Assembly: GCA_965235115.1 (NCBI GenBank) | Contig: OZ249436.1 | Location: 17,610,001-17,674,000, forward strand | Source: Laetmonice hystrix | Taxonomy: Eukaryota | Direction: 5' to 3' | DNA: 64,000 nt | Part shown: in pieces, positions 5,668 to 50,967 of the stretch | Layout of the letters: each line of letters starts with the position of its first letter | Position numbering within the stretch: position 1 is the stretch's first letter | The notes under the pieces: generated by a model | Database searches by the model: none | What the model was told of the DNA's origin: nothing | What the model saw: the letters and a program-made list of their open reading frames with translations, nothing else | Made by a program: the position numbers and the translations under genes

Positions 5668-6361
5668 TGGGCAGTTCAGACTCTGTTCAGTTGTTCTGTA
5701 GAACCTGAACGAAGTGTAGACGTAGGGACTTATACTTATTATAGCTGAGGCTGTTTCACAAGCCAAGGGACAAGGTCAGGGGGCGGAGAGCAGATTGACA
5801 GCGAGACCATGGGCATGGAGGCCCGAGATCGGCTATACCCGAGTGGGGCAGTAAGGGCCGTGGGCGGGTCACTCTCCAGTAGGACGAGGAATCTGGGTCA
5901 AGGCGGCCGAGATATGTCAAGTCTCCCAGTGTAGTACACACTAACACAGTAACAGTTCTAACGTTGTGGTTAACTGATTATTGCCATGGACGACTAGTCT
6001 AATACTGGGACAGTGGGAGCAACCTACACTGGCTAGCACAGGCCTGTGAACAGTGTGATAAGTATAGGGGGTATAGGACTAAGTTGATTTTTTACTTTAC
6101 TAGCCTGGCTGGCTAGTTCATAACTTAAATTTCTACCCCTGAAGGGCCTATCTAATTAATCATTACCTATGACTTAATTCTTGAAAGTTGAGACCTAGAC
6201 TAATTTGAGAAGATGCCATCAGAGTTGCTTTCAAGTACATGTATTTAAAAATAATATTTCTGATGCACCCTAGGTTACAAAGTTTTGTGATGCTGCTCTT
6301 AAAATCTTACTTTTAAAGTATTTAAAAAAAATTTTTTGGACAGATTTAGTTGCCAGAAACC

Positions 6362-7600
6362 ATGGCCAGTAGAAGAAGATCCAAACGGATTTTTGGAGAC
6401 TGCACGAACCAGGATGTCATCCAGACGGCTTCGTACAAGTCAGAACTGTGTCGAGCCATCCAGGTTGGAAACGAGGAGTTGACACGGGGTCTCCTTGAAG
6501 ATGGTGCGGATGTGAACGAGCTGAGTTATTACCGTGGTTATGGCGAGCCGCCAATCCTGACGGCCGTCCGCTTTCAGAATTTTTCAATTATTCCTATACT
6601 TTTGGAGTATTCCGTTGATGTTAACCTGCAGAGTGAGCGTGGTCACACTGCTCTTACATGGGCGGCTCAGAAGGACCATATCGCGACCATCAAACTGCTC
6701 CTCAACCATCAGGCTGACCCCAACGTCATAGATACATCCAGACTGTGTGCCCTCTACTGGACTGTTAAACATGGTAACTTAGAGGCCACACAGGAACTGC
6801 TGAAACATGGGGCAAATGTCAACTTGATGGTGCAGCAACAGTCGACTGTCTTACACACAGCGGCCAGCAGTGACCAGGTGGACATAGTGAGGACACTCAT
6901 CGACCACAACGCCTGCGTTAACACACCAGATGACTTTGGAAACTCCTCACTGTTTGCCGCTGTCAGCGTCAATAGTTTTGATGTGACGTCACTCCTACTG
7001 CAACGAGGGGCTGTGGTCAATGTGTTGAACATGGACTCCCGCACCCCACTGCACATAGCAGCAGCTAGTGTCCATCGGAGTGTCGATATAACACAACTTC
7101 TGCTCGATCATGCAGCACTCGTTAATGTTCCTGACCGGTATGGAAACTCCCCACTGGTGCTAAGTTTGAGAAACTTTGTACTCCATGCCAATTTTGCAGT
7201 AGCGAAATGTCTTGTTCAACATGGCAGTGATCTCAACACTCAGCAGTGTTCCTCAGCCCTTGAATGGACCACCATTGCCCATGGTAACTTTGACCTCGTC
7301 AAACTGTCAGTTTTTGCTGGATTTCGTATTTTAAAGGTAGATTGGGTAAAAGAGTTTATTGAGGGAGCTCCAGGCCGTCGGCGCTGGTACACACGTAATG
7401 ACTACAACATTCAACAGGAGCGTATTTTTGTGGAATTTCTCAAACACCACAAAAAGAACCCATTCTCCCTGGCCGACTCCTGTCGCGTTACAATCCGGGA
7501 CTGGCTGCTGGCCATAAGTCGGGGGGCAAGCATCTATTACATCATCCAACGACTACCCCTGCCACAACCACTTATTATGTATCTCCTGCTGGAGGACTGA
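6362..7600 (+). CDS. Ankyrin repeat and SOCS box protein (ASB family), single coding exon, 412 aa
   Basis: About 8 ankyrin repeats (GHTALTWAA, RTPLHIAA, GNSPL) and a C-terminal SOCS box PFSLADSCRVTIR...IQRLPLPQPLIMYLL; Kozak-like accATGg. Confidence 0.93.
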   Translation: MASRRRSKRIFGDCTNQDVIQTASYKSELCRAIQVGNEELTRGLLEDGADVNELSYYRGYGEPPILTAVRFQNFSIIPILLEYSVDVNLQSERGHTALTWAAQKDHIATIKLLLNHQADPNVIDTSRLCALYWTVKHGNLEATQELLKHGANVNLMVQQQSTVLHTAASSDQVDIVRTLIDHNACVNTPDDFGNSSLFAAVSVNSFDVTSLLLQRGAVVNVLNMDSRTPLHIAAASVHRSVDITQLLLDHAALVNVPDRYGNSPLVLSLRNFVLHANFAVAKCLVQHGSDLNTQQCSSALEWTTIAHGNFDLVKLSVFAGFRILKVDWVKEFIEGAPGRRRWYTRNDYNIQQERIFVEFLKHHKKNPFSLADSCRVTIRDWLLAISRGASIYYIIQRLPLPQPLIMYLLLED

Positions 7601-16253: not shown

Positions 16254-16761
16254 TTACGACTCAAGCCATGACGTCGACTGTCTGACCCTGACCTGAGGCT
16301 GAGGGGCATAACCAAACTCAGAAACTGGCAAATTGCCAAAGCCAAAGACTTTACTATAAAACGTAAAACATAAAATAAGAGCTTTTCTTTTTGGGCTTTA
16401 AAAATTTGGGAGTTTAGACCCCCAGCATCCTTCCATTTTTTTGTCTATAAATATTAAAAATTTAAATTGTGCATTTAAATTTGGACTTTTTTTAACTAGT
16501 TTTCCTTAAATAAACAAAATTAATCTAATAGGTATCTATCCCTAAGTTAATTTAATATTAAAGTAGAAATTCTGTACTAACTGTTTTACGTTGACTATTT
16601 TATTTAAATTCTTGAGTACAATGTATACTTTTTTCAATTTAAAATATAGATCTATACTATTGAATTAAAAAAAAAATGACTTTAAAAAAAGTCTTTATTT
16701 CTTGTATTATATATCATGTTTTAATTCATATTCCTTTTCTTTCAGGTAGTAACTTGGCAGG

Positions 16762-19700
16762 ATGGTGGACCCTGAAACATTTGCTATGCTTGACAAGCTG
16801 GCATTGGATTTGGCATCACTGTCTGATCCCAAGGAAACCAGACCATGCCAACCAGATGGTGCAGCTGTTTCAGAGGCAGCAGTCAAGGAGCCATCCGTCG
16901 GTGAGATGTGGCAGATGCGTCACTGGCTCCAACAACAACACCTTGAATACCAAGGAGCACTGTATGCAGGTAAAGATGTGCTGTTAAAGAATTTGATTAA
17001 ACTGGTAAAGGTTGGGAAATTACTATATTTTAAGAAGTACCAGAAGTTGCTACTTGGACTTTATAAAGTATATTTTCAGCAAGTTTCATTGCTATATGGC
17101 CCAAGAAAGTAGTGCAGGAGAAACCCTAGCTTAGGGTCTCTGGCCACTGGGCATTTCTTTGTATATACTGCAGATAACAAGCTGTTGACTCTTGTATTTC
17201 TCAGCAAAAAACAAGGATCCACCATCTTCTAATGACCCAGAACAGTTGCAAGCAAGGTAAGCTACACATGGTACTGGTATAGAAATTGATGAATTTCTCT
17301 AATTATTGATGTGAAATTATAGAGTAGGGTGACTGAGGGAATGTATCCATTTACCACAGTGAATAATGCAGTAAAGTCACTGCACCAAGGAAGATGAAAC
17401 AGTAGATCTTTTATAAGTGTATTATTTCAAAATTTACTTCTGAAGTAAGTAACTGAAATTGTGAATCTTTGATGAATCCTTCTGGTCCTACAGAGTTACT
17501 GGTCTCCAGCAGCAGCTGATGGAAGCAGCTACAGATACCTCCCTACGAGATCTCATCTTACAAAGGTAGTGCATTTCTCAAGGAATAGTGTCAGTTTTAG
17601 CAGCACTGGCGTGGGCTAATAAAAAAACACTAAGCAATAAATTTCAATTTCAGATTACAGATGAGTCATAGACTGCTAGAAACAGTGTTTCCACCAGGCG
17701 GTATAAAAAACATTACTCCTGAGCAGCAGCAGACAAGGAAGTAAGCGCAAACATATGTCTTATCTTGACAGGCCAGCTTTATCTTGGCAAATGTCATTCA
17801 TTTACTGAACAAAATTATTATGACAATGATATGGTAGTATCTTCCAAAAAGGTTTAGTAATGTTGGCTCAACTAAAACAAGGAGTGGAAGTTGAAGCAAC
17901 ATGAGTGATTTCAAGTTTTTTCTGATGATAGTGCTCGTAATGTTCACCATGTATCATAGCAAGATATTTTAATTAGTCCAAATTTGGTTTCAGGACAGTT
18001 GTTGAACTATTAGAAAAGCAAGTCAACCTTAGTTGTCATGTACTTCGAATAAGCAAGGTAATTTAACATGTGTATACTGTACCATACTCTATATGGGCCC
18101 TGATTTCAACAACTAGTTAAGTTTACATGCCATAACATATAATTTATAGTAGATATGCCATGAATACAGTGAATTACATCTGAAATGGTCAACTACAAGT
18201 AAATATGTCATGAAATATCTACTGGTGTGCTTTGGTAAGTAAAATCAGTTCTTAAACTGTAAACCTTATGTATATTTTTTCAAGGAAATTGAAGAAATGA
18301 CACCCGAATTGGAGGAAACAAAGAAAAAAAATTTTGGTAAGTGTACAAATCCTGACACCTGTCTTTATGGTCACTGTTTGTAGGCTTTGTTACTGTTGTG
18401 TAGGGGTTTTATCTTGCCTCTGTGATAGGCCTCGTATACTTGGCCTATAGCTTAGCTATGCCCGTGTCAGATTTTGAAACTTACATGGAATGAGAGGCTT
18501 GCTCGCACATAACCAATCATTTCAAATGAAGTTTTGTCTTTACCTTCAGCCATTGAGTGCAATGAATGTAGCTCAAGTCTTACAAAGCAGATTCGGGTGA
18601 TTTTTCAACAAAGTGGGCACTTTAACATCGGCACGGCCGGTGGCCATTTTAAATAAACAAAGGGAGCAGCTGTTATCTAAGAAGGGGGCCTGGATCTCGG
18701 GCCATAATGGAGGAGTGCTTGGCTCCCTGTGGTATGATATGCTCCCCTACTGGCCTTCAATGCGTATGCGCATTAGGACTAACAACATTGCAGGCAACGG
18801 AAATCAAACTGCTCGGTTCGAATTTTCAAATATATGGGATAAAAACAACAAAAAGTGAGCAGTGGAGCTGTTTGATGAGAAGGAATACAGCAATTTGATC
18901 AAATGGCATGATTCACGACGAATTTTACACAGCGGTGAGTTCGCATTGGAGGTACATGTATAGTTTTAACGACCTGCAATGTCAGTCCCTGTTTGCTGGC
19001 AACTGGGACGACACTCAGTCAAGGTTTTATCATGTTGCTAGGATCAAACAGTCATTAGAATTATTTTATTCCAGTTCCCTGCCTTGTAGAAGGTGGAATG
19101 CCTAATTATGGATATGTTTCTATTGTTGTTAGAATTACTGAAGTCAAACCGAGAGTTGATGTGGAATCTGGAGCAGTCGAAGAAAGCAGCTGAGAGCAGT
19201 AATAGTCGTGGAAATCAGCGACTACAACAGTAAGTTACATGGCTTGGAGAATTAGCTTGATGGGAAATGCTAAATGCAGGTTGCTGACAGTGTAATTCTC
19301 AGTCTGTGATATATTGTCAGTGTGAACTGAACTGTGGTAAATCTCCATGGCAACATCTCCAAAAAATTTGGTGGGAAGAACTAAAAATCTGTCTTGTGTC
19401 CATCTGCTGGTTGTGTATTGTGACCAGGACTAACATCTGCTGGCTGTGTATTGTGTCCAGGACTAACATCTGCTGGCTGTGTTGTGTCCAGGACTAACAT
19501 CTGCTGGCTGTGTATTGTGTCCAGGACTAACATCTGGTGGCTGTGTATTGTGTCCAGGACCAACATCTGCTGGCTGTGTATTGTGACCAGGACTAACATC
19601 TGCTGGCTGTGTTGTGTCCAGGACTAACATCTGCTGGCTGTGTTGTGTCCAGGACTAACATCTGGTGGCTGTGTATTGTGTCCAGGACTAACATCTGCTG

Positions 19701-19940
19701 GCTGTGTATTGCATCCAGGACTAACATCTGCTGGCTGTGTATTCTGTCTAGGACTAACATCTGCTGGCTGTGTGTTGCAGGGCCCAGCAGGAGGTGGACG
19801 AGGTGATGTGTCGGGTGGAATTGGTCAGACCCATCTTCCAGGGCCTAATCCTGGGTTCAGGCATAGACTGGGCGGCAGACAAGGAGATGGCAGACCTCAT
19901 GGTGGGGTTGGGGATGCCACTCGAGTCTCACCTACACTGA
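16762..19940 (+). CDS. CENPH: Centromere protein H, 8 coding exons, 263 aa
   Basis: Exons 16762-16969, 17205-17256, 17494-17565, 17654-17740, 17994-18057, 18285-18336, 19133-19229, 19781-19940 join in frame (792 nt). Coiled-coil protein ending IFQGLILGSGIDWAADKEM, matching the CENP-H signature (FQxLILGSxVxWAxD). Confidence 0.88.
19400..19775. repeat. 30/33 bp minisatellite abutting the last CENP-H acceptor
   Basis: ccaggactaacatctgctggctgtgtattgtgt about 11-12 times, ending at tgtgttgcag|19781. Confidence 0.95.
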
Positions 19941-20594
19941 CTATAGACTGGGCAGCAGCAGGGGCGGATTCAGGATTTTGGAAAGGTGGGGTGCAGAGGT
20001 CTGAGTGGCAAACACACCACCCTGGATCCGCCCCTGGTCAAACAAGGAGATGGCAGACCTCATGGTGGGGTTGGGGACCTCTTATGCTTGAAATACACTT
20101 GATAAATTTTCTTTGCTTCAAGATTTTATTCTTCTATTATCAATCCAAATGATGTCAAGTGGTTTATATTTCTGCATAGAAAATAAAAAACAATTTGAAA
20201 AGTTCTTTAGGAGCCCACTCACTCTGTGCAAAGTACGAGCCCAATTAATCACAAAGTGCTTTTGGTTTTCTTAAAGGTAACCATTTTATTATAGAACAAA
20301 TAATACACCTCATTTCACAGCGCCATATACATGTAATATATACCTTGACAAGCTGTCGTGGACAGACTCCCCAGCTTCCCCAGTTGGGCCATGTGGCCAA
20401 ACTTCAACAACCCTCAGGGATAAGCTGGATACATGTAGATATTTATGAGCAGCCCTGCGCATTCGATTCTGTAGCTTAAAGAGCAGGACAAATCATAGAC
20501 TTTAGATGGGCAATCACTGTCCATCAATACTCGTCAATGTTTGGTTAATGTTGATTGTAGAGTGGGTAATATAAATACCTGGTGGTTTAGCGTT

Positions 20595-21630
20595 AAAGAT
20601 TGAGGAATAAGGAATGGATCTATGCCAGCCATGCAGGGAACAGCATTGTGTCACCTCGGGTAGGGCCTGTTCATTAATGTCAAAGATTGAGTAAACGGGA
20701 ATGGATCTATGCCAGCCATGCAGGGAACAGCATGGTGTCACCTCGGGTAGGGCCTGTTCATTAATGTCAAAGATTGAGGAATAAGGAATGGATCTATGCC
20801 AGCCATGCAGGGAACAGCATTGTGTCACCTCGGGTAGGGCCTGTTCATTAATGTCAAAGATTGAGTAATCGGGAATGGGCCTAGGCTAGCCATGCAGGGA
20901 ACAGCATTGTGTCACCTCGGGTAGGGCCTGTTCATTAATGTCAAAGATTGAGGAATAAGGAATGGATCTATGCCAGCCATGCAGGGAACAGCATTGTGTC
21001 ACCTCGGGTAGGGCCTGTTCATTAATGTCAAAGATTGAGTAATCGGGAATGGGCCTTGGCTAGCCATGCAGGGAACAGCATTGTGTCACCTCGGGTAGGG
21101 CCTGTTCATTAATGTCACAGATTGAGGAATAAGGAATGGATCTATGCCAGCCATGCAGGGAACAGCATTGTGTCACCTCGGGTAGGGCCTGTTCATTAAT
21201 GTCAAAGATTGAGGAATCAGGAATGGATCTATGCCAGCCATGCAGGGAACAGCATTGTGCCACCTCGGGTAGGGCCTGTTCATTAATGTCAAAGATTGAG
21301 TAATCGGGAATGGGCCTAGGCTAGCCATGCAGAGAACAGCATTGTGTCACCTCGGGTAGGGCCTGTTCATTAATGTCAAAGATTGAGGAATAAGGAATGG
21401 ATCTATGCCAGCCATGCAGGGAACAGCATTGTGTCACCTCGGGTAGGGCCTGTTCATTAATGTCAAAGATTGAGTAATCGGGAATGGGCCTAGGCTAGCC
21501 ATGCAGGGAACAGCATTGTGTCACCTCGGGTAGGGCCTGTTCATTAATGTCAAAGATTGAGTAATCGGGAATGGGCCTAGGCTAGCCATGCAGGGAACAG
21601 CATAGTGTCATCTCAGGTTGGGCTTGTTCA
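20595..21630. repeat. 87 bp tandem repeat (~12 copies, two alternating subtypes)
   Basis: aaagattga recurs every 87 bp (20595, 20682, 20769...); subtype A ggaataaggaatggatctatgcc, subtype B gtaatcgggaatgggcctaggct. Confidence 0.96.
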
Positions 21631-24600
21631 TTATGTACATTACAGGCCAACTGTCGATCATCAAATAAATGAAAATACCAAGCAATTATCTTATCAAAAC
21701 CGAACCCTTCACTCCCAGACAAAGTCGGGTAATCTGGTCTGGGTACACTACCTGGGAAAGATGACTGGGGGTCTAGGGGTCAGCTAGTCTTATTAAACTG
21801 GTCTCCAGGCGCTAAGAAAAATCAGAAGTTATGTCTGAAAAATATGGTGTGTGCCATCCACACAATAGTCACTCGAGACACCTCTTGACGATTTCTGGGA
21901 TGGACTGATTTTAAGATTTCCTGCCCACACTAACCAGTTCACGATAAGACTAAATATGGCCAGAAAAATGGAGTGAAACCTTAGTTTCTACTGGGAATAG
22001 ACAATGTCCCCCCCACCACCACCTTTCACAAATCAAACACTTTTGTCTCGCTATACATTTTATAACAGGTGGATAATTTATCAGGTTATTACAAGTACAT
22101 ACTTCTACATTCGAGGACACGGAACAATCCACAACAACATCTACTAGTATTTACTCCTCCCAGCAGTGTCGCTATGAGCTCTTCACTCTCCCCCAAACAT
22201 ACAAAAATCCTTACACACTCCTTTTTTATTTCATTGTATCATTTTCTTTCCCAACGGTAGTTTTGGTTTGGACTGGTTCTATAACTGCTGGCCAAGTCCA
22301 CAGACTTGAGTTTGGCATTTAGAGTGACCCAATCTGTCAGTTTTAAAGCTCATAAACCAAATATTTCAACATGAGAACAGGTTTCCAGTTTTTTTTAATG
22401 TTTTTAAATGTTGTTCACACATTGGTTTACCCACTCCATGTAGGAATCGGTATTTCCCTTGAGGAAATTCAACTATTTGTAGACAGATCTCGACGTCAAC
22501 CGTTTTCTGTATATCTCGGAGTGCTGCAACCAGACGGACACCAGAAACCATCTGACACATCTACTGTGACGTCACCCGTGTAAATTTTTAAAATTTTGTT
22601 TTCATCTTATTCTGAAGATCACATATTTATATTGGTTTTAATTCTTACATTTTCACTTACATAAATTAACCCTACCGGTACATTTTAAACTGTTCAGGGA
22701 GCAGTACTTCGCAAAAGTACCTGGCCACCTGCTACTAATCTAGAAACATCTACAACAGCAATTTTCCAGTAGTGGAAATTGCCAACAAGGTAGTCAATGC
22801 TTTAGAAATTGGTGAAAAAGTTGCTGGACATCTGGAATTTCATTAGAAAAAAGGCCTGAATCTGCACAAAGCATCGTTAATTATTCACACGTACATGTAT
22901 ATCACTTTATTAGCATGAGGTATCGCTCGAATACATGGCTATAAAAGAAGTCAGAGGGTGAAATAAACGAGTGACTTCTCAATGAAACTCTGTCTTTTAA
23001 AATACCACTTGATTAAAGTGACACAGAGAAACAAGGAAAGGTTACAAATTGAACGGAATGAACTACCAGGTACCTCAATTCTTCATCCCTTACAATGACA
23101 CACCCTCAACACCACACACCCAGTCACAAAGACACACACTTTCACCTTGACGACAGGTAGAAGAGCGAATGGCGGCCATCTTTCCAATGTGTGTGGCGGT
23201 TTTGTTCAGTTTTTGTACAGATTCTCTGGGGCTGCCTCTTATTTCAACGACTGTTTTAACACAGTTTTCTTCCCAATCAGATTTAAGACATCTGACCAAG
23301 TGTCTGATGTCCGACAGATCCCCCCACCCACAGCCTGAACTGTGGGCAGACACGGCCGCAGACTACCTCAGATTAACTGTTAAAATGGACGTTTACATGG
23401 GTCTTGAAACACCTAACAACCCCGACTCGATATCGTGGATTGTGTGTACAGGTACATTGATTAAACAAGTTAGGTCCTGCATCTAATGAATACTGCAGGC
23501 TGCAAAACTTGGTCCAAACTAAATATTTCCAATATTCCTTCCCCCTCCCAGTGTATCTTCAATTTGCAAAGCCAGCCAGTACTTAGATTGACACTGTCAC
23601 ATATAAATAGAACCACACCTGTTAAATTAGTGAGGACGACAGAATAATTTAAAAATTTTAGTTTAACAATTAAATCTTGTTTATTTTAAATGAGCAGAAA
23701 TAATTCTTGGCCTAGCCCTAGAAAACAGACACTCCAAATACAACAGTCGGTTATATTAATTCTGCAACAAAACTCCAAATTCAGTTCAAACAGTCGACAA
23801 TCTACTACTGATATCGTAGTCACCTCTCCACAAAACGTTATTTTATATTTATAGTTAACTTTGTTCTAAACCACAAGAAGAATCACGGCTGGGGGTTTCT
23901 CCAACATCTGTGGCAACTATGCCGAATTTTGTCTCGGTCCACTTGCGATTATTGTATGGATAGACATCTCTGATTTATTAAACACACCACCCTCTCTGAC
24001 TTGGCGTGTTTGGTTGAGCCAGACTACAAACTACCCTGTCAGTCTCATCCAAACTGCTGGCAATGGAGGACAAAAAACAGCTTTCTAAAAATGGTCACAA
24101 ATAAATCTGAATGGGAAACCAATGAGTTGACGAGCGCTGCAAAAAAATGAAGGGCAGACACCTTGAGTAACCACCAACTTTTGGGGGAATCCTCCAGAAA
24201 TTCTACCCCAAAATAACCTTTGAGAGGTACAGAGTTTATTACTTGAAAGTTTTTTTGACAATGACACCAGACTTATGTTTGGTGTCAGGTAGTGGTAGGC
24301 AGTTACTTGACTTGACACCTCTCTCAATAAACAAACTACATTGTAAGCTCATTAGAATATTATTTAACTCGCCCCACAACCCAAAATAAATGGTCTTTAT
24401 GCCTTAAAGGGCAAAAATGGTACCGTTTAATCCCAAATTTATAGGAATGAAGTGAAGCAAAGGTTTAAGTCTCTCAACAAAACCAAGCAGTTCCAGTACG
24501 CAGACCGTACTGCCTTTTTTATGGAACATAAACACACTACTTTTGTTTTGTATAGACCTTATATAGAATGATCACCATTAGCTTCTTATAACCTAAATAA

Positions 24601-25302
24601 ATTCCTCCTGTACTGAGCAGTCAGCGTGAAGTATCACTATGATTTCTCACCCCAGTTACCCATGAGGTTTGGTCAACTACAGCAATCCAAACCAAATCGT
24701 TAACCTCTCCTCGTACAGAATCTAACACCCATGTATTCTGTACACTGCAGATAAAGGTGCTTCCATTGATGTCAATACATGGTCATTATGACCCGTCCAT
24801 ATTTACACAATTACTGATTAAAGATACTTTCTAGAAAATATTTACCCCACAAAAATATGGTTTGCCAGTAATGGAGAACTTTTTACAACAGAGGTCCATC
24901 TCTTAGTACAATCTGCCATTGACTAAATAATCTATGCTGCTCGATTCGAGGATAGTTTCTTCTGTAATATTGTACTCCTTAACAACACGAGGGATCTTTG
25001 TGTCTGGCTGTCCAGGTGCTAGGACCTGATCGTGTAGTGTAGATATATCATAGTGATGAAAGCACATTATCAACTGTGGCACCTGTCTGCCGACTCCCAG
25101 GAACATTCACACGATAGCCTCGCTGTGGGTGACACTCAATATAACATTAGGTCAATCACGAGTCTTTGTCCTGGAAAACCTGCAGACTCTTTCAGCCACC
25201 ACACTGCAGTCTGTCTTCAGTCTGTTCAAGTTATGTCTTGTCTTTTTGGGGACAGACGGGGAAAAATTATTTGTTGGAGACAGACAAAAATATGGAGTAA
25301 CT

Positions 25303-28300
25303 TCAGGGTGAACAAGTTGTCTCTGTGACGAGCTTGCTAGGAACCAGTGAGGGTTTGCGTGTTGGCAGGGTTTCAGGTGTCGGGATGGCATCTCCCGTCG
25401 CGTCTGTGATAATATCTGTCGGGACTGGCTTGAGAATGACTGGCCCACTTGTGGTCGACGGCATCGCTTTGACGGCTGGTGGAGGTGGCATTGCTTTCTT
25501 AGCCTTAGCCATGTTGTAATCTCCAGAGTCAAAATATTTTTGCTGCAACAGTGAAGCCAGTAATAGTCAGAAAGGGGCTGCAAGAGTTTGTATTGTTACA
25601 ACTTAGCCTTTCCAAAATCTTCCAGGAAACCCTGGTTACAATCTATCTCGGACTACAAACGGGGCTCAGTCAATGTGGTGTTCTTACCCCCTTCGACAGC
25701 CGTTTTTGTAGGAACGCAGACGACCCTGGTCCCTTCAGTCCTGGATATTTGGATCGTAGCTTTGCCTCCTGCTCTTTCTCAATTGAGGCCTGTACAAAAC
25801 AACCAAGAAAAACAACCAGTGAATGTAAAGAATCATAGATGCCACCTTTCTGAGATATACAGGTAGTCACTGAGAGTGCACAGTACAGGATATGATTGAA
25901 TGATGTTTTCATGTACAGTAATTGGCCATCCTTATATTATTAACACTTTAATCTTTTCATAGAATGAGCTTTTCTAACAAGACCCTTACATTCTCATTAA
26001 TTTCATCATTTCCCATAAATTCTCCATAATTCAGTTAACTCCTCAACCAAAGCCTATACATTATATAATACAGCACATCTTTCACAACACATACAGTGGT
26101 CACCTGTCAAGTTTCAGACTGACATAATTGACAGGAATCAAACTAAGCAGGCAGTCTATTGCCACAGATGTTAATAATTTCATTATATCTCATATAAAGA
26201 AGATTGAAAAACCCAAACACTGCTAAAATAAAATGATCAAGTCTCTCATTGCCATGCACCAGTACTTAGCTACTAACAATGTTACCAAACTGAAACAGGT
26301 ACATTTCATGTTCAACATGTTACTTGTCATAAAGTTAAGACAAAATTAATAGGTGAGGCAATGGCATGCGAAATATATGAAGGACCACTAAAATGCAAGG
26401 AGCTTGTCCAGGAAGAAAGATTCATGTGACATGCCCTCAACTCAAATAAAAAACTGGTCACTATAATCGAAGGAGCTTGTTCTTGGAAAGAAGGATGTGA
26501 CGTGGCCTCAAAATCACAAGTAAACTGTGCACATACATGAAATTGTTATTAAAGTAATTCTGTCTAAGTAGGACGTACTTGGAGTTGGATGTAGCAGCCA
26601 CTTAATTTTTTTTCAAACATCTGATTGCAGTTATTGGTAGGAAATTTTATAAAGACCTTTCTGCTCTGCTACCTTTTGAGCTTTTAAATTCATGGCTTGG
26701 CCAAGATTCATAACTAGTGCTCTTCATTTCAGAATGCTCAGATCAACGGTTTTAACATCTTTATCATCTTCTACATCATGAAACCATGTTCATTCTCAAG
26801 ACAAGATGTATGCAAAAATATCATGAAACCATGTTCATTCTCAAGACAAGACAGATCCAAAAATATTTTAGCTTCCATAGATGTTTTCAGAATAAAATAT
26901 ATATATCTAGAGGAATAAGTGAAAAAAAGGAACAAAAAACAGAAGAGAAGGTACTGGTAAGACCATGACTGTAAGCTGCAGGTTTTATATGAGAATTGAG
27001 AAACATTCTGAAACAACATTTACTGGTACACGTTTGATCAAAAACATCAAAAGATACTACTAGTCACTCTGACAACTTTGATGTTAATTTACCATCTGAC
27101 CGTTATATATAACTGCAGGGGTGGAAATTAAAGTTTGTACGAACTAGCTAGCCGGGCTAGTAAAGTAAAAAATCAACCAGCCCAGATGATGGAAACGTCA
27201 GATGCCCGGGTCTGTTTGGCAATAAATTAGCCCCAGTCAGACCCGGTAAGTAGCCCTATCCCCAAAATATGCTACTCGCCAACCGGGCATGTGTTAGGTG
27301 AATGTCTAGTCGCCTCGGTCGACTCCAAATGCCACCCCTGGACTGCACAGCTGAATGCTTAGAAAGATCTATAAGTAACTTCCAGCTTAACTAAAGACAA
27401 AAAATACATACTTACCTAAGTATAATTACTACATTTGGGGGTGAATTTAATGATACATTTTTTAGATACGACTAATTATCTGTGGGTCTAGAGTTTAGTA
27501 AATGATGAGAGTGCCAAGTTGTATTTCGAGCAGTTTATGCTGGACAGATTCATTGCTGTAGACTAAAAAAACCTGCTAATATGTGCTACCTAATCCCTCC
27601 ACCTTATTGACTGGCTACTATAAACACATGGACCCAAGTTACTGTAATTATTTTGTGAACTTTGCTACCTTTCCACCACGTAGTCCTGGGTATTTAGCTC
27701 TCAACTTAGCTTCTTCAGCCTTCTCTATCTCCACCTGTGTCTGAAAAATAGGGTACACATGCACAAACATTCATTATTATCACCAAAATATATGGTAGCA
27801 TCCAGCTCAGCACAACATGTAAGGATCTTGGGTCAATGATATACATCAACTATTTTTCAACATTGGCAAGGTAATGAAATAACTTGCAGAAAGTGACATG
27901 CTGACGCCCGAAGTTGACCATTGATGTTAGGCAACACAAACTGGTAAAATCTCTGGGGAAAAAAACAAGATAAACTAGTCTTCTGCACTTTCATTTTTAT
28001 ACCACCTTGGTTGATTGTATGAACAACGCATGCATCTATGTTATAATGGTCAGAATATAACATACAAAATACTCTGTTACAAGAATGCATTTCTATGGTC
28101 ATGGTTATGAGACAGTGACCTTTCTAACTAGGTGTACTGTTTTGTGTATGGGAAGCAAGTGGGTCAAGAGAAAACCCAAGAGCACCCGAGTTTGGTCTTA
28201 ATGCGGTCGTAATCTCTTCAATTTAGCATTGGGAATCCCTGCTGGCAAAGTTCTGTCAACTTCTAAATATTATTATGTCATGGTTAGAGTACTTTAATTT

Positions 28301-30463
28301 TTTACCGAGTACAAAATAAGAATACCAACTGGTATTACATACATGTACATGTATAAGAAAGAATACATTTCATTTAATTTTTCCTAAGCACCTGCAAAAA
28401 AGTTCATCGCGCCCCTCAACTTCACTGACTGAGGCATTCTGAACTGGCGTTCCTCCTCAGCCATGTCTGAGACAACTTCAAAAACGCTCTCTCTCTCCTC
28501 CTTGTCTCCAAGTAAATCATTTCCTAGACGGCTCCCAGGACATCTTTATGCCAATTGCCAAACCTTATAAACTACCCTGAGTTTACCTGGAAATACCCAA
28601 ACATGGGAAAGTAATGATTTCTAGGGGAGCGAGTCCCGAGCGACTTAGCTCTCCTTGGATAACCAAGGCCCGGGGAGTGATGGATGGGACCGTAAAGATT
28701 TCATATGGCAAGCACTGTAATGATACATAATCTGGGCTGGCCACCCTTAAAAAATCCTTCAGCAAGGTGCGCATAATCTTGCGCTTGCACGCCATAGCTC
28801 GCCTAAAATTGTTCCAAGGCGCACAAAAGACTGCACGTCTACCTATAAGATTAGTTAAAACTTTGTGCGCCTAGACAGCTTCCTCTGGAGTGACCCTATT
28901 CTCTCAAGCAGACTTATATGCTAGGTACCTAGGTAGGGCTGGTTCTTCTTGGCTTGTGTCTCTTGTGGAATAATCGGGAACTAATTACCAAGTACGGAGG
29001 TGTATCAAAGTAAAAGCCATATGCTGGCTTAAAACAATGAACCTTATTGGTTGACTGATTGGCAAGTATTAAAACAGTCTGCAGGTCGTCAGAAAAAATG
29101 CTCGTCTAGAGGTTCAAATTGTAGTTTTGGCGAGTAATTATTTACTCGCCTGGCCTTTTCAAAGGACAGTGCTGGGACCTAGGTTGCACCTCATGAGGCT
29201 GATCCCTGGTCTGCACGCAGACTTCTTTCAATCCAAAACCTATTTAAGATTTAGTCAGGGTCGTATGGATAATAATTTTACTGAAGTCAAATTTCATTTA
29301 GTTAAGGGGACGAGAGGTGGTGTACGTTTGATACCTAAGCGAATCGGTTATGTACGCTAGTTGGCTGAAGGTTCGCCGGGAGAGGCGGCGGTGGCTGCCG
29401 CTGGGTGAGGTGCCAGTTGACCAGGGCGAGTCACCTGGGCCCCGTCTTACTAAGAATATTCCTCGCCGAACAGCGACATCGCCAAAAGGCACGTTCCCCG
29501 ACAGGTCGCCGATTGCCCCTTATGCTGATGATAATTCGCCCAGCAGAGAAACTTAAAACACGATGTTTAACACCCTTTAGTCCATTTTACATTCTTACCT
29601 TTTACAAATATAACTAAAATCATGAGCTCAACTTATGTTGTTTGTTTAGGATAAACATTCAAACATTCCAAAACACGCTATTTTAGACGTCCACAACGCC
29701 CATTCACTGTGTCAGCTAGAATCACTCTCTATTTTGGTTTGTTTGGACGTCACGTAGCGCTCTCTGCAAACCCGAACTTTGTATTTGTGGCACTGGGGAG
29801 AGAAAGCAAGACGGCTCTAGTTTACGGTTTGACACATTTTAGCTTTAATTAGCACTCCCCGCCAAAGTCGCCAAATTGGCGACATCGTCAGGGAGGGATT
29901 TTTTAGTAAGACACCTCGAGCTGGCGATATCGCCAATTTGGCGACTTTGACTGCGATATTGCGACCTACGTTAGTAAGACGGGCTCCAGGGTGCGGGTTG
30001 ACCTGTAACCTGTTACCATCACCGCATCAGCAGATAATTTCAAAAATAATCGGTTTAACCGTATCAATATTAAAAATAATAATTAATATTAAACAAAACT
30101 TTATAATTCTTATTAATCTTAATCTGGGTAACGTCTGTGTCCTGTCCAGTGTCCGAGTATGCTACTCGTCGGGTTCAACACATCTGGACTGTAGTGTTAC
30201 TGTTAGCCTGTGTGCTAGCCCCACCGCGGCGCTGACCGTGCGGTACAGAGGGTACAGAGCCTCAGGAGCAAGAGGGCAGCGAGGGGCCACTGGCACTGCA
30301 CGCACTGCCACTGCACGGCCACGGCACGGGGAGCGAACGTTCGCAGGAAATAAGGTGCCGTTTTATGCCATTCCAGCCCCAAATTATAAGCTAATATTAC
30401 CTTGTTAGATTGATCTGTCGTCATCCCTTCCGTCGGAGGTTGTGGCTCACTTTCTGAAGACAT
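25303..30463 (-). CDS. ENSA: Alpha-endosulfine / ARPP-19 family protein (PP2A-B55 inhibitor), 134 aa main isoform
   Basis: Exons 30463-30401, 25789-25688, 25542-25303, all phase 0. Motifs [52 protein letters not shown]. Confidence 0.95.
27116..27340. mobile_element. Short non-autonomous DNA element (CAGGGGTGG termini); related inverted fragment at ~6000-6141
   Basis: caggggtgg...ccacccctg termini; flanks aactg/gactg; ctagtaaagtaaaaaatcaac is present in reverse complement near 6085-6105. Confidence 0.55.
27648..27740 (-). CDS. ENSA: Duplicated alternative exon 2 of endosulfine
   Basis: Acceptor tatttttcag| then [24 protein letters not shown], paralogous to [22 protein letters not shown]. Possible donor gtagca after 27669, or read-through VAKFTK to TAA at 27650-27648. 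Confidence 0.75.
   Translation of the reverse strand, partial: TQVEIEKAEEAKLRAKYPGLRGGKVAKFTK
29438..29986. mobile_element. PIF/Harbinger-like MITE
   Basis: TIRs ggccccgtcttactaa / ttagtaagacgggctc flanked by ctg/cag; internal tcgcc/ggcga repeats. Confidence 0.65.
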
Positions 30464-30849
30464 TTCTGTGGATGTTTTCCAGCCCGAAATTTAGAAATAT
30501 ACTTTGACGTTTCTTTGCCTCCAGTCACTGCAAATATGGCGGTGGTCTGACGTCACACTTCCTTTCCGCTGCCTCAGTCGTACAGACCCCTAGTCGCGAA
30601 ATATTAAAAAAAAGATAGATCAATCTACATAAAGAAATTATCCCAGAAGCAAGAAGGGTGATCATTGCTATGATGTAAAGCGAAATTTTAATTGGATTGT
30701 TTGAGAGGCGTGTGGATAAATCATAGACATAAATTAACGTTATTTTGGGGATCTTTGAACCAAACGAGCACCTGTCTGTCTCAAGTCAGTGTACCCCTCA
30801 ATCCGTCAGGGGGCGACACGATAGTTCTGCCACTTGTCACTGAGCGAAA
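30464..30849. promoter_or_regulatory. Bidirectional promoter ENSA (-) / COG1 (+)
   Basis: Only ~390 bp between the two start codons; atggcgg (YY1-like) ~30536, tgacgtca (CRE) ~30549, cacttcc (ETS-like) ~30556, aaaatggcgg at the COG1 ATG. Confidence 0.7.
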
Positions 30850-33800
30850 ATGGCGGACGTTGTGAAAGGTAAGTTGTTGAAATCCCGGCAAAATTCAGAA
30901 AAGAGCAGCCAAAGCAGCGGGAACCAGTCGCTGTGCTATCCTGAAATGCCGGTGGTGTATAGTTATTGACAGTTGAAAAGGACAGGCCTGCGCCGACCTA
31001 CTCAGCTACTGCCCAGTAAACCCTAACAGTTAGGCCTACTTGTTCGGCCCCACTGGCACTGCCACTGGGCCACTCCACTCCGTCTCCACTGGCACTGGAC
31101 TGGGCGGGGCCTGGCCAAGGCAAGTGCCTAGCGGGGCTGCTGCCCAGCCACTGACTGTGTGACTGAGTCAAAGAACCCCGATATCGATATGGGTATCGAG
31201 GTTCTTTGACTGAGTCTTTGACTGAGTGTCGTCCCAGTTGCCAGCAAGGCTTATCTATCACAGAGGCAAACTGAGTCTGAGCCAAGCACAGCACCCAATC
31301 TAATTAAAATTAGATCTTGGTATTCCGCGTCTCTCTCGGCTGTGTCGGTGCTGGCTGCGCTCCATACCTAGATCTAAGGACATCCCATTAGGGGTCACCT
31401 CAGGTTGACCCCGGGATTCAGCCAATCAGCGAGCCGCCTACGAAATCTTCGGTGTGCGCTCGTAGGCATTTTCAACGGCACACTTGAATCTGGGTCAAAG
31501 GTCAGCCTGAGGTGACCCCATACGGGATGCCGTTAGATCCTAGTATGTAGCGCATGCGAAATAACTAAGATCTAATTTTAATTAGATTGGCACAGCACCA
31601 GTACCAGTAGCCTCTAACATAGGCCGTACGTGTGTACGGCCTATCTTCTAGCGAACGGGCTACGAGACCAAACGTTCTAGCGCAGAATGAATGTGCTTCC
31701 GCACCTCTTCCAACACTTCAAATAAAAGATTGCCTTTACCTTCAGCTACTGAGCCCAATGAACTTACTTGGTGTTCCTCTAAGCAACAGATTCGGCCAAT
31801 TTTCCAAACCAAGCGACCACTTTCCATAGTCTTACAACCGGCGCCATTTCTGTAAATCCACATCCGGGGTCAAGCTCACGAAGGGAGCAGTCATTTCAAA
31901 CGTTGGCTACTAGTTCGGCGCCATAATGGAGGAATTGCTGTTCGGTCTAGAATAATAAATGCTCCCCTGCTGGTCGCCAGTGTGCGTGTTTTGAACATGC
32001 GCAGTAGAACAAACAGTATGGCGGCTAACGGCAGTGAAACAGCGCGATTCGCAATTTCGGAAGTCTGATTTATTAAAACTTTGGGCAAAAATCCTCGGAA
32101 AAGTGTGCAGCAGAGGAACAGAAGATGGGCTGCGTTAGAATTGACACCTCAACTGGCAGTAGTTACGATGGATTTTGCACAGCGAGTGATTGACATCGGA
32201 GGTAGGGTTTTTCGGGTTAACGCTGTCCGTCCCTACACTGGGGACGATACTCCGTCTACAGTACCAGGCACTGTACAGTACTGGCACTGCACCAGCCCAC
32301 TGCTGGTTGGGCACTACCTCTACGCCTAGTAGTAGACTTACAGGTCGTGACTACACGAACGTTAGGACGTATTTATTAATTTATTGGCAGTGTATATTTA
32401 CAGTGCTGCAAACAGGTTTCACCAACTTGGTGGTCAGACTGGACCAGTAAGTTCACTGATACTTAGTGGTTCACCTTAAATTCTGGTGGTCCAACCTAAC
32501 AAGGAAAGAATCCATTTTTTTAAGTTTATAAATGGGTTTTAAATCCTTGTTACTTTTCAGTGTAAGTGACCTCTACTCTTGCCTCCGAAAGACCTCCTCC
32601 CCTGCCTTCCCCTTCTTCTACTCTCCTCCGAGTCCAACTGAACCCATCTTTTGCCATTTTTGAAAGTGGGTCGGTACCTCCTGACGTGTTTTAAACCTGT
32701 GCTCCCCCTCCTCCCAGCCTGGGTCCTTGGTCGCCAAAGTGGGAGAGTGTCGCAGACGTTTTTGTTGACCACTCAAAGACTTGGTTGCCTCTGGCGAGTG
32801 GGCGACTCCATTTGCAGCACTGTATTTATCCGGTATTTGGGAGGGTCACGTGCCCATTAAGCTTCAGTTGTATTGGATAATGGTCTACGGTTAAATGGTC
32901 ATCTATCCAATTTGAGACAAAACAAAGGCAGTGTATATTTAGCCAGCATTGGCATGGTCATGTAAGGATTAAGCTTCAATCCTGTTGAATAATGCAGGCA
33001 ACCTCAGCATCTATGTTTTCCCAGAACCTGATGGAAAATTACATGAAACATAGTCTTTATTTCATTGAAATCATACAAATAAAAAGTTATGTAATTTTTG
33101 AAAAGGTATTTAATGTAGGTTTGTTTTTTATTGGTATATTGTAGGTGTGGTAAGCCATGACATGGATACCAATGTTTTGTTTGAGAAGTTCACGATTGAT
33201 GAGATTCGGGACATCGAGAAGAAAACAAGGTCAGTATATCTTAACAGTGCTGCCATCTGTGAATGCACCAGTAACTTAGACAACTCGGGTGTGGTTTTAG
33301 GTTCCCATATCAGAGATGACAACTTACAGGACCACTTATTAAGTGTGTTTGAAATTTCTGATTTGATAATGTCACTAGGTCCAAGTTCCCTTGCAATAGA
33401 TAGTGTTCTGATATGGTATTATCTAATTTCATGCAATCAGAGGAGATATAGAGAAGAAGAAAGAAGATCTTCGCCTCATGGTTGGGTAAGTGAAATGCCA
33501 GGATTTCCAAGAATAAACATGCTCTTTTATCAAGTTTCAGAAGTCTTTAAAAAAAATTAAAAAAGGGTTTGCAAAGATTATACTTATGTCGTCTTTTCTT
33601 GGGATTAAGGGAAATCTGAATGACTTTCACTTCTTGTTTCTAAGTAATACTGTGCTGTTATGTAAGTAAGATGCATTAAATTCAGTATGATTTGTGGATT
33701 AGCCAACTAAGCCAAGCTTTGTTTATAATTATCACAACTACCTTTCTAGTGAACGATACCGGGACCTCATTGAAGCAGCAGACACAATTACTGAGATGAA

Positions 33801-50363: not shown

Positions 50364-50967
50364 CATTCGGGAATCCTCGGCCATATCTTCGAAAGTAGCC
50401 TCGGGTGAAACAGGTGCCATTTTGAGCATTGCATCTCGGGTACATTTAGCCGGGACTCTCGACAGCATGGCAGTGCTTGCAGTATTTTGTCTGCATCAGG
50501 CATGGAAGCAACTAAAATAGGCCTACAATGCTTTCCCCGAAGTCAGTGGTCAATATTACAATAGTATCATGTCATGATACAACTTAAATTACAACATGAT
50601 TACAAGTAGTCCTACCATGTGTCGGGCCAGTGTCGTACGCGTGTCGTACATGGGCGCGGCCATATTGCTTCCCAGAATTTAATAAATTACCGTATTGACG
50701 CCCATTTAGGTAAATTGGGTGATTCATTTTTCTTCTTCAAACGTTCCCCTTCATACCAGAAATTTATATTTGCACATACAACGCCGAAGGAGCGGGTGTC
50801 AATAATGCACTACTTCCTGGCTCGATGGGATATGACGGTTCACTCAGTGCCTCGCTACACACCTCCATTTGGCGGTGTATCTGGTTGCCAAACATGGCCG
50901 CTATTCCACCCGAGGGTATATTCGAATAGCAGGAAGTGACGTCATATGCCCGAGGGAGTCCCGAATG
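50364..50967. mobile_element. 604 bp MITE, uninterrupted inverted copy of the element at 801-2664
   Basis: TIRs cattcgggaatcctcggccatat / atatgcccgagggagtcccgaatg; ggttagaac at 50355-50363 and 50968-50976. Confidence 0.92.

Follow-up and report, generated by a model that had tools for sequence, protein, structure and literature searches.

The minus strand of the 64-kb stretch of DNA analysed here (the window) carries what is, judged by its sequence, an ordinary endosulfine (ENSA/ARPP19) gene: three coding exons that together specify 135 aa (Table 1). The predicted protein combines an α2 segment followed by α3, the FDSGDY Greatwall site with a match to the Pfam family PF04667, a TGDxIPTP crossover motif and a C-terminal RKxS. 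Exon 3 alone matches PF04667 with an E-value of 1.6e-5 and 25.3 bits, which, for a fragment, falls under the 29.8 cut-off; the close relative P0207 scores 46 bits, and the best 120 of 424 protein matches to exon 3 include many named ENSA/ARPP19 proteins. The α3 candidate of the canonical exon 2 (exon 2b) fits the motif F-L-R-X-R-L-X-K at five of the six specified positions. By family membership, the product is predicted to be a Greatwall-dependent inhibitor of PP2A-B55. In exon 3, the Pro-rich linker that leads from FDSGDY to the crossover motif (25453-25500) is longer than in most homologues, a trait shared with the close relative P0004/P0207.

Four runs, X1-X4, cover the region; they represent one sample from a single study, and the assembly may itself derive from them. 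By its behaviour, X4 resembles an RNA run: it assembled to 58 Mb, compared to 517-599 Mb for X1-X3, and its record 26 starts 2 nt past the AATAAA at 20290, where the contigs of X1-X3 continue. Records 26-28 of X4 cover 20283-20676, 21581-22567 and 22569-25542, and these delimit the probable 3' UTR. The 87-bp minisatellite within it (11.9 copies, 20595-21633) is flanked on either side by alignments of X2 record 10 (20048-20626 and 21497-26032), which suggests collapse of the array or length variation. At the other end of the gene, TGACGTCA and CGCCATATTT lie at 30533-30556 on the minus strand, just 5' of exon 1; they resemble CRE and YY1 elements, and a cAMP-responsive promoter on the gene of a cAMP-regulated phosphoprotein is possible.

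Several other features share the window. X4 records 24 (4232 nt, extending past the stretch compared) and 25, at 19781-20071, end approximately 200 nt from the endosulfine 3' end; they are probably the tail of a convergent neighbour gene with an ORF at 16753-17112 on the plus strand, for which we found no confident Pfam match. A divergent ORF start at 33114-33560 (plus strand), 2.7 kb upstream of the endosulfine start, resembles COG1, and this piece gave no Pfam match. A single 416-aa open frame at 6350-7600 (plus strand), which encodes ankyrin repeats and ends in a SOCS box, marks an ASB-like gene. A broken LINE-type reverse transcriptase occupies 1040-2412 on the minus strand in two overlapping frames (RVT_1, E 7.7e-8), and short pieces related to such a reverse transcriptase lie near 50610-50939.

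Table 1. Features of the endosulfine gene and of its additional exon (window coordinates)
Feature	Position	Strand	Description
Exon 1, coding part	30401..30463	-	63 nt, 21 aa; donor AAG/GTAATA, phase 0; from sequence and translation
TGCATG	27758..27763	-	23 nt 5' of the acceptor of exon 2a; a lead only
Extra exon 2a	27669..27740	-	72 nt, 24 aa, phase 0/0; repeats the α2 helix and Tyr-Pro-Gly-Leu segment, without the α3 B55-platform motif
Intron start past the exon 2a donor	27648..27668	-	read-through would add 6 residues and TAA (27650-27648); tail not conserved
Canonical exon 2 (2b)	25688..25789	-	102 nt, 34 aa; α2 plus the α3 motif FLQKRLSK
Exon 3, coding part	25303..25542	-	FDSGDY Greatwall site, TGDAIPTP crossover motif, RKPS PKA-type site, stop
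Probable 3' UTR	20283..25302	-	~5 kb; ends near AATAAA at 20290; holds the 87-bp minisatellite

Intron 1 of the endosulfine gene (4.6 kb) contains a further exon, 2a. A preliminary description of this DNA had placed here a second phase-0 exon paralogous to exon 2, and both its coordinates and its reading are right: a tblastn search of the 64-kb window with exon 2 matched exon 2a with an E-value of 5.5e-10 and 14 of 18 residues identical, no other match outside exon 2 itself doing better than E 0.79, and exons 2a and 2b are the only copies in the window that score above 5 bits with an α2 profile. The acceptor is as clean as described, with a pyrimidine-rich tract ending in CAG before 27740; a second in-frame CAG precedes 27734. 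The donor, AAG/GTAGCA at 27669/27668, had been called weak; it is there, and is only slightly weak, agreeing with the consensus at 5 of 9 positions as compared to 6 of 9 for each of the donors of exons 1 and 2. With its AG and GT ends, a length that is a multiple of three and equal phase on both sides, exon 2a has the make-up of a frame-preserving cassette exon. The TGCATG upstream of its acceptor, a possible RBFOX-type element, is not enriched, with three copies in the 4.6-kb intron and 37 on the minus strand of the window. We found no stable RNA structure around exon 2a (z +1.5) and, among the 11 inverted-repeat pairs listed, no long one flanking the exon that could serve as a docking site for exclusive splicing.

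The proposal that the peptide has been kept while the DNA has diverged, suggesting selection, is borne out by the comparison of 2a with 2b. The two are identical at 35 of 54 nucleotides (13/18, 16/18 and 6/18 at the three codon positions), and nine of the 14 identical residues are encoded by different codons. Silent sites are saturated (pS 0.96, 13 of 13.5 sites) and replacement differences are few (pN 0.15, 6 of 40.5 sites; Fisher p 3e-8). The intron flanks of 2a and 2b are no more alike than shuffled sequences, 58% and 53% of 300 of which score as high. Saturated silent sites, low pN and unrelated flanks together argue that exon 2a arose by an old duplication and has been kept for its peptide; judged by this substitution pattern, it is a real exon under purifying selection.

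Conservation of the exon in a related genome had been named as a check, and a profile search supplied it at the peptide level. Run against 1.84 billion representatives, this search returned 153 matches, 150 of them listed. Among the listed matches, 140 have a recognisable α2 motif (141 occurrences); only five of the 141 fail the α3 pattern, and in four of those five a variant α3 can be seen by eye. The ten listed matches that lack the α2 motif comprise nine with an α3 visible by eye and one unrelated repeat. One match of the 150 listed resembles exon 2a: P0256, which comes from a 678-kb ENA contig and is a read-through ORF in genomic DNA. It is identical to exon 2a at 17 of 20 residues, the closest among 277 α2 segments (next best 14/20), and is nearer to 2a (15/18) than to 2b (12/18). 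At the offset of the acceptor it reads Phe-Gln and then Thr-Gln, and Thr-Gln occurs there in P0256 only among the 277 segments. Its position 25 is a Val codon (GTN, a possible donor), as in exon 2a, and acceptor and donor positions match; no α3 motif follows its α2, and the tail past position 24 differs in sequence and length. From this peptide we infer that P0256 is the orthologous exon 2a, with corresponding splice sites and a corresponding location in an endosulfine intron. Residues peculiar to exon 2a (Ala-Glu-Glu-Ala and Arg-Ala-Lys) are kept across the two genomes where 2b differs, which hints at specialisation.

P0207, the closest full-length relative, is transcript-like and has the skipping layout; it is nearer to 2b (15/18) than to 2a (13/18). 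With P0207 nearer to 2b and P0256 nearer to 2a, the duplication would predate the split from the species of P0256. A full-length protein with tandem α2 segments from a close relative was not found among the 366 proteins examined, 307 of which contain α2 and one of which, P0183, has two copies in another layout. Seven proteins had been flagged for at least two α2 stretches: five contain a motif split by a Gly-rich insert, one is an unrelated repeat, and P0183 is the one true double. A word-index protein search over 71-2000 aa gave nine candidates and no match; the word-index searches effectively covered 43-139 and 239-2000 aa, to either side of the length of the tandem form (159 aa). A pattern scan of metagenomes gave ten loci, four of which are endosulfines (L001 and L010 transcript-like, L002 and L007 genomic) with one α2 each; for L007 the 1.6 kb available upstream of its exon is too short to exclude a second α2 exon. 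The other six loci show no endosulfine context. Among the metagenome ORFs, L003, L004, L006 and L009 are unrelated to endosulfine and carry the same decamer, apparently as convergent short matches. The ESM Atlas search gave no usable match.

Evidence on splicing comes from the contigs of run X4. Record 28 aligns from 22569 to exactly the exon 3 acceptor at 25542 and then continues for 105 further letters: the 102 nt of exon 2b plus the AAG in which both exon 1 and exon 2a end. We simulated ten isoform sets in a k=31 de Bruijn graph, in which the merging of two upstream paths marks the start of a contig. Skipping together with tandem inclusion predicts 105 letters before exon 3, intron retention 104, and single isoforms 262 or 334; the observed value was given by only three of the ten sets, all of them skipping plus inclusion. 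The cover of X4 independently fits the same joining. The bin 27680-28113, which holds exon 2a and is single-copy in X1-X3, has a mean depth of 7.15, against 1.64 for the bin below; once a repeat contig of depth 3.1, whose extent is itself estimated, is subtracted, the ratio of the two bins is 0.195-0.198. Acceptor 27740 joined to exon 2b predicts 12/61 = 0.197, as compared to 0.180, 0.208 and 0.226 for three other junction pairs, on the assumption of one contig over exon 2a; the cover of X4 fits 27668-27740. The ratio thus points to acceptor 27740 being used rather than 27734, and contig ends and cover, in this one sample, point to a spliced exon 1-2a-2b-3 form (159 aa) beside the skipping form (135 aa). 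Allelic variation close to where exon 1 ends could produce a similar contig start. Contig depth is approximately 51 for inclusion and 20-25 for skipping, figures that do not equal expression level and give no inclusion ratio. Four of 30 bins have zero depth in X4 (25944-26377, 26378-26811, 28982-29415 and 30718-31151), and the bin below exon 2a shows 1.64 against the 4.0-29.6 expected for read-through at equal depth; absence of contig cover is given no weight here.

A profile built from the 2a and 2b peptides aligns to residues 27-58 of human ARPP19 (PDB 8TTB chain D, E 6e-8), and exon 2a corresponds to ARPP19 residues 25-41, that is, helix α2 and the subsequent Tyr-Pro stretch, ending before α3. 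In the structural account of the human complex, residues 25-41 make a fuzzy contact with the L4/5-L5/6 cleft of B55, with the α2 density being amorphous in the cryo-EM map, while the α3 motif binds the B55 platform (PMC10765524). The same source describes five-alanine mutants of residues 32-36 and 37-41 that lose B55 in pull-downs, and reports that when FAM122A is bound, ARPP19 remains on B55 mainly via α2 (PMC10765524). In frog, mutation of the K36/K38/R40 patch slowed dephosphorylation of the Greatwall site and left B55 binding and inhibition unchanged (PMC8196004); ENSA without its basic patches is likewise dephosphorylated at a reduced rate (PMC5004449). Aligned via P0099, the frog patch maps to K-L-R-A-K of exon 2a.

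We therefore favour, with a probability of roughly 0.6, a reading in which an old partial duplicate of exon 2 has become an optional cassette exon that doubles α2 and tunes the inhibition of PP2A-B55. The first part of exon 2 would have been duplicated in tandem long ago and turned into a frame-preserving cassette. Skipping it would give the normal 135-aa endosulfine, and including it before exon 2 would give a 159-aa protein with two successive α2 segments, followed by intact α3, FDSGDY, crossover and PKA motifs. The long form would thereby gain a mobile, basic, phosphorylation-independent point of contact with B55, placed 23 residues ahead of the usual one. Because α2 has these properties in the human and frog work, the two copies should act as alternating anchors for one B55 cleft, an avidity effect that would lower the off-rate and raise residence on PP2A-B55 even with the B55 platform occupied by FAM122A or a substrate; a second KxRxK patch may also alter the speed at which the Greatwall site is dephosphorylated. 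By analogy with the human and frog proteins, the most likely function of exon 2a is stronger or longer tethering to PP2A-B55, with splicing tuning the strength or timing of the inhibition and not switching it off. Against this function speaks the frog result: loss of the basic patch left binding and inhibition unchanged, so a second α2 copy may do little.

The preliminary description had envisaged a splicing switch with two possible products. Exon 2a is probably alternatively spliced, as proposed, but both named products are disfavoured, and the tandem isoform was not among the proposals. In one of them, exon 2a is terminal and read through to the TAA at 27648, producing a 51-aa, α2-only decoy that lacks the Greatwall site. 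The predicted length stands by sequence, with a stop codon in frame 21 nt beyond the donor. Variant poly(A) hexamers follow at 27608, 27525 and 27451, and an α2-only peptide could in principle occupy B55. As a product it is nonetheless improbable, since together with skipping it would put the contig start 132 letters before exon 3, in place of the 105 observed, the tail of P0256 after position 24 has not kept the sequence or length of the read-through tail, and no AATAAA is present between 27668 and 25790. In the other, exon 2a replaces 2b through the junction 27669->25542, yielding a 125-aa protein with FDSGDY and without α3 (FLQKRL), a Greatwall substrate that would be a poor inhibitor. This junction is in frame, and tandem duplicated exons are known to splice in such a fashion (PMC8373072), but the contig break would then fall 1 letter before exon 3, where record 28 extends 105, and the cover ratio would be 0.180 or 0.208, a misfit to that observed. 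The two exons are homologous and in tandem, yet unequal in extent (72 vs 102 nt, 2a being without α3) and 1.9 kb apart, and the contig geometry, fitting 2a joined to 2b, suggests that they are not confined to separate messages; we rate the mutually exclusive pair as very improbable. Contigs drop rare variants, and minor truncated or exclusive forms are thus possible.

Two further readings accept that exon 2a is spliced and differ in what the extra helix does. It may be that the tandem form binds not one B55 cleft but the PP2A scaffold subunit, a second PP2A-B55, Greatwall or a neuronal partner. An NMR study of ARPP-16/19 located scaffold-subunit binding at a second transient helix and the residues that follow it, a helix that may or may not be the copied one (PMC8032985), and the hint of specialisation in the 2a-specific residues fits here too; however, the best-resolved role of the α2 segment is contact with B55, and no result of our analysis suggests another partner, which leaves this reading unlikely. 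Alternatively, exon 2a could be spliced yet neutral, or a decaying relic, its inclusion being tolerated by a disordered N-terminus. Among endosulfines, the N-terminus is of freely varying length; the mammalian ARPP19 isoforms P0066, P0093 and P0095 have unrelated, variable insertions at the same place, and P0207 lacks the exon 2a peptide, though it may be just the skipping form. Neutrality would nevertheless be hard to square with saturated silent sites at a pN of 0.15 and with the retention of 17 of 20 residues by a second genome, and we give it little credence.

The optional cassette that doubles α2 can be set beside several known systems. Human ARPP19/ENSA (PF04667; 8TTB chain D; PMC10765524) has the same order of α2, α3, FDSGDY, crossover and PKA-type site as the host gene, but one α2, whereas the host gene has a second copy, without α3, on an optional exon of its own. 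In human cells, the cassette-exon isoforms ARPP19-long and ENSA-long carry optional exons that reportedly change with the cell cycle and alter exit from mitosis (bioRxiv 10.1101/2025.05.08.652831). In annotated long mammalian ARPP19, the insertion before α2 is unrelated to α2 and variable between species, unlike the conserved copy of a binding helix seen here; we infer that this insertion is the exon 2 of that preprint. ARPP-16, the short neuronal variant of ARPP-19, also shows N-terminal isoform variation, in its case the loss of 16 N-terminal residues with no duplication described (PMC8032985). Splice events derived from tandem exon duplication (PMC8373072) likewise involve a homologous exon beside its parent, with silent-site divergence and retention in another genome; that catalogue, whose main text does not mention ENSA or ARPP19, is of substitutions, whereas exon 2a duplicates its parent only in part and would be added to it in tandem, changing the number of repeats. 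P0183, an ENA protein of 377 aa, resembles the long form in being an endosulfine with two α2 segments, but its copies lie 65 residues apart with an α3-like stretch after each; it is a predicted product from a distant lineage, its relative P0185 has one copy, and it is probably an independent event or a gene-model artefact. Titles and abstracts contained no report of a duplicated endosulfine exon, in a search that most subscription papers fall outside, and genome annotations may list such an isoform; nor do 'exon' and 'duplicat' occur in the main text, supplements aside, of a cross-species ARPP19 preprint (10.1101/2023.07.05.547804).

More tentatively, a splicing switch shared across the lineage may set the number of B55-anchoring helices, the two-helix form docking on PP2A-B55, or linking two PP2A complexes, without Greatwall phosphorylation and with the platform occupied. 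Endosulfines are very small, strongly conserved proteins that time entry into and exit from mitosis and meiosis. In oocytes or neurons, a switch in helix number, if true, would shift the Greatwall-endosulfine-B55 switch in its threshold or its timing. A switch in helix number would also constitute a natural experiment on the sole ARPP19 contact that cryo-EM could not resolve, and the isoform pair, differing by one α2 copy, would offer a direct test of the effect of the helix on affinity, off-rate and dephosphorylation speed. Within the scope of two genomes, our results suggest that splicing control of endosulfine N-termini, for which human cells reportedly use an apparently unrelated exon, arose separately in an invertebrate lineage.
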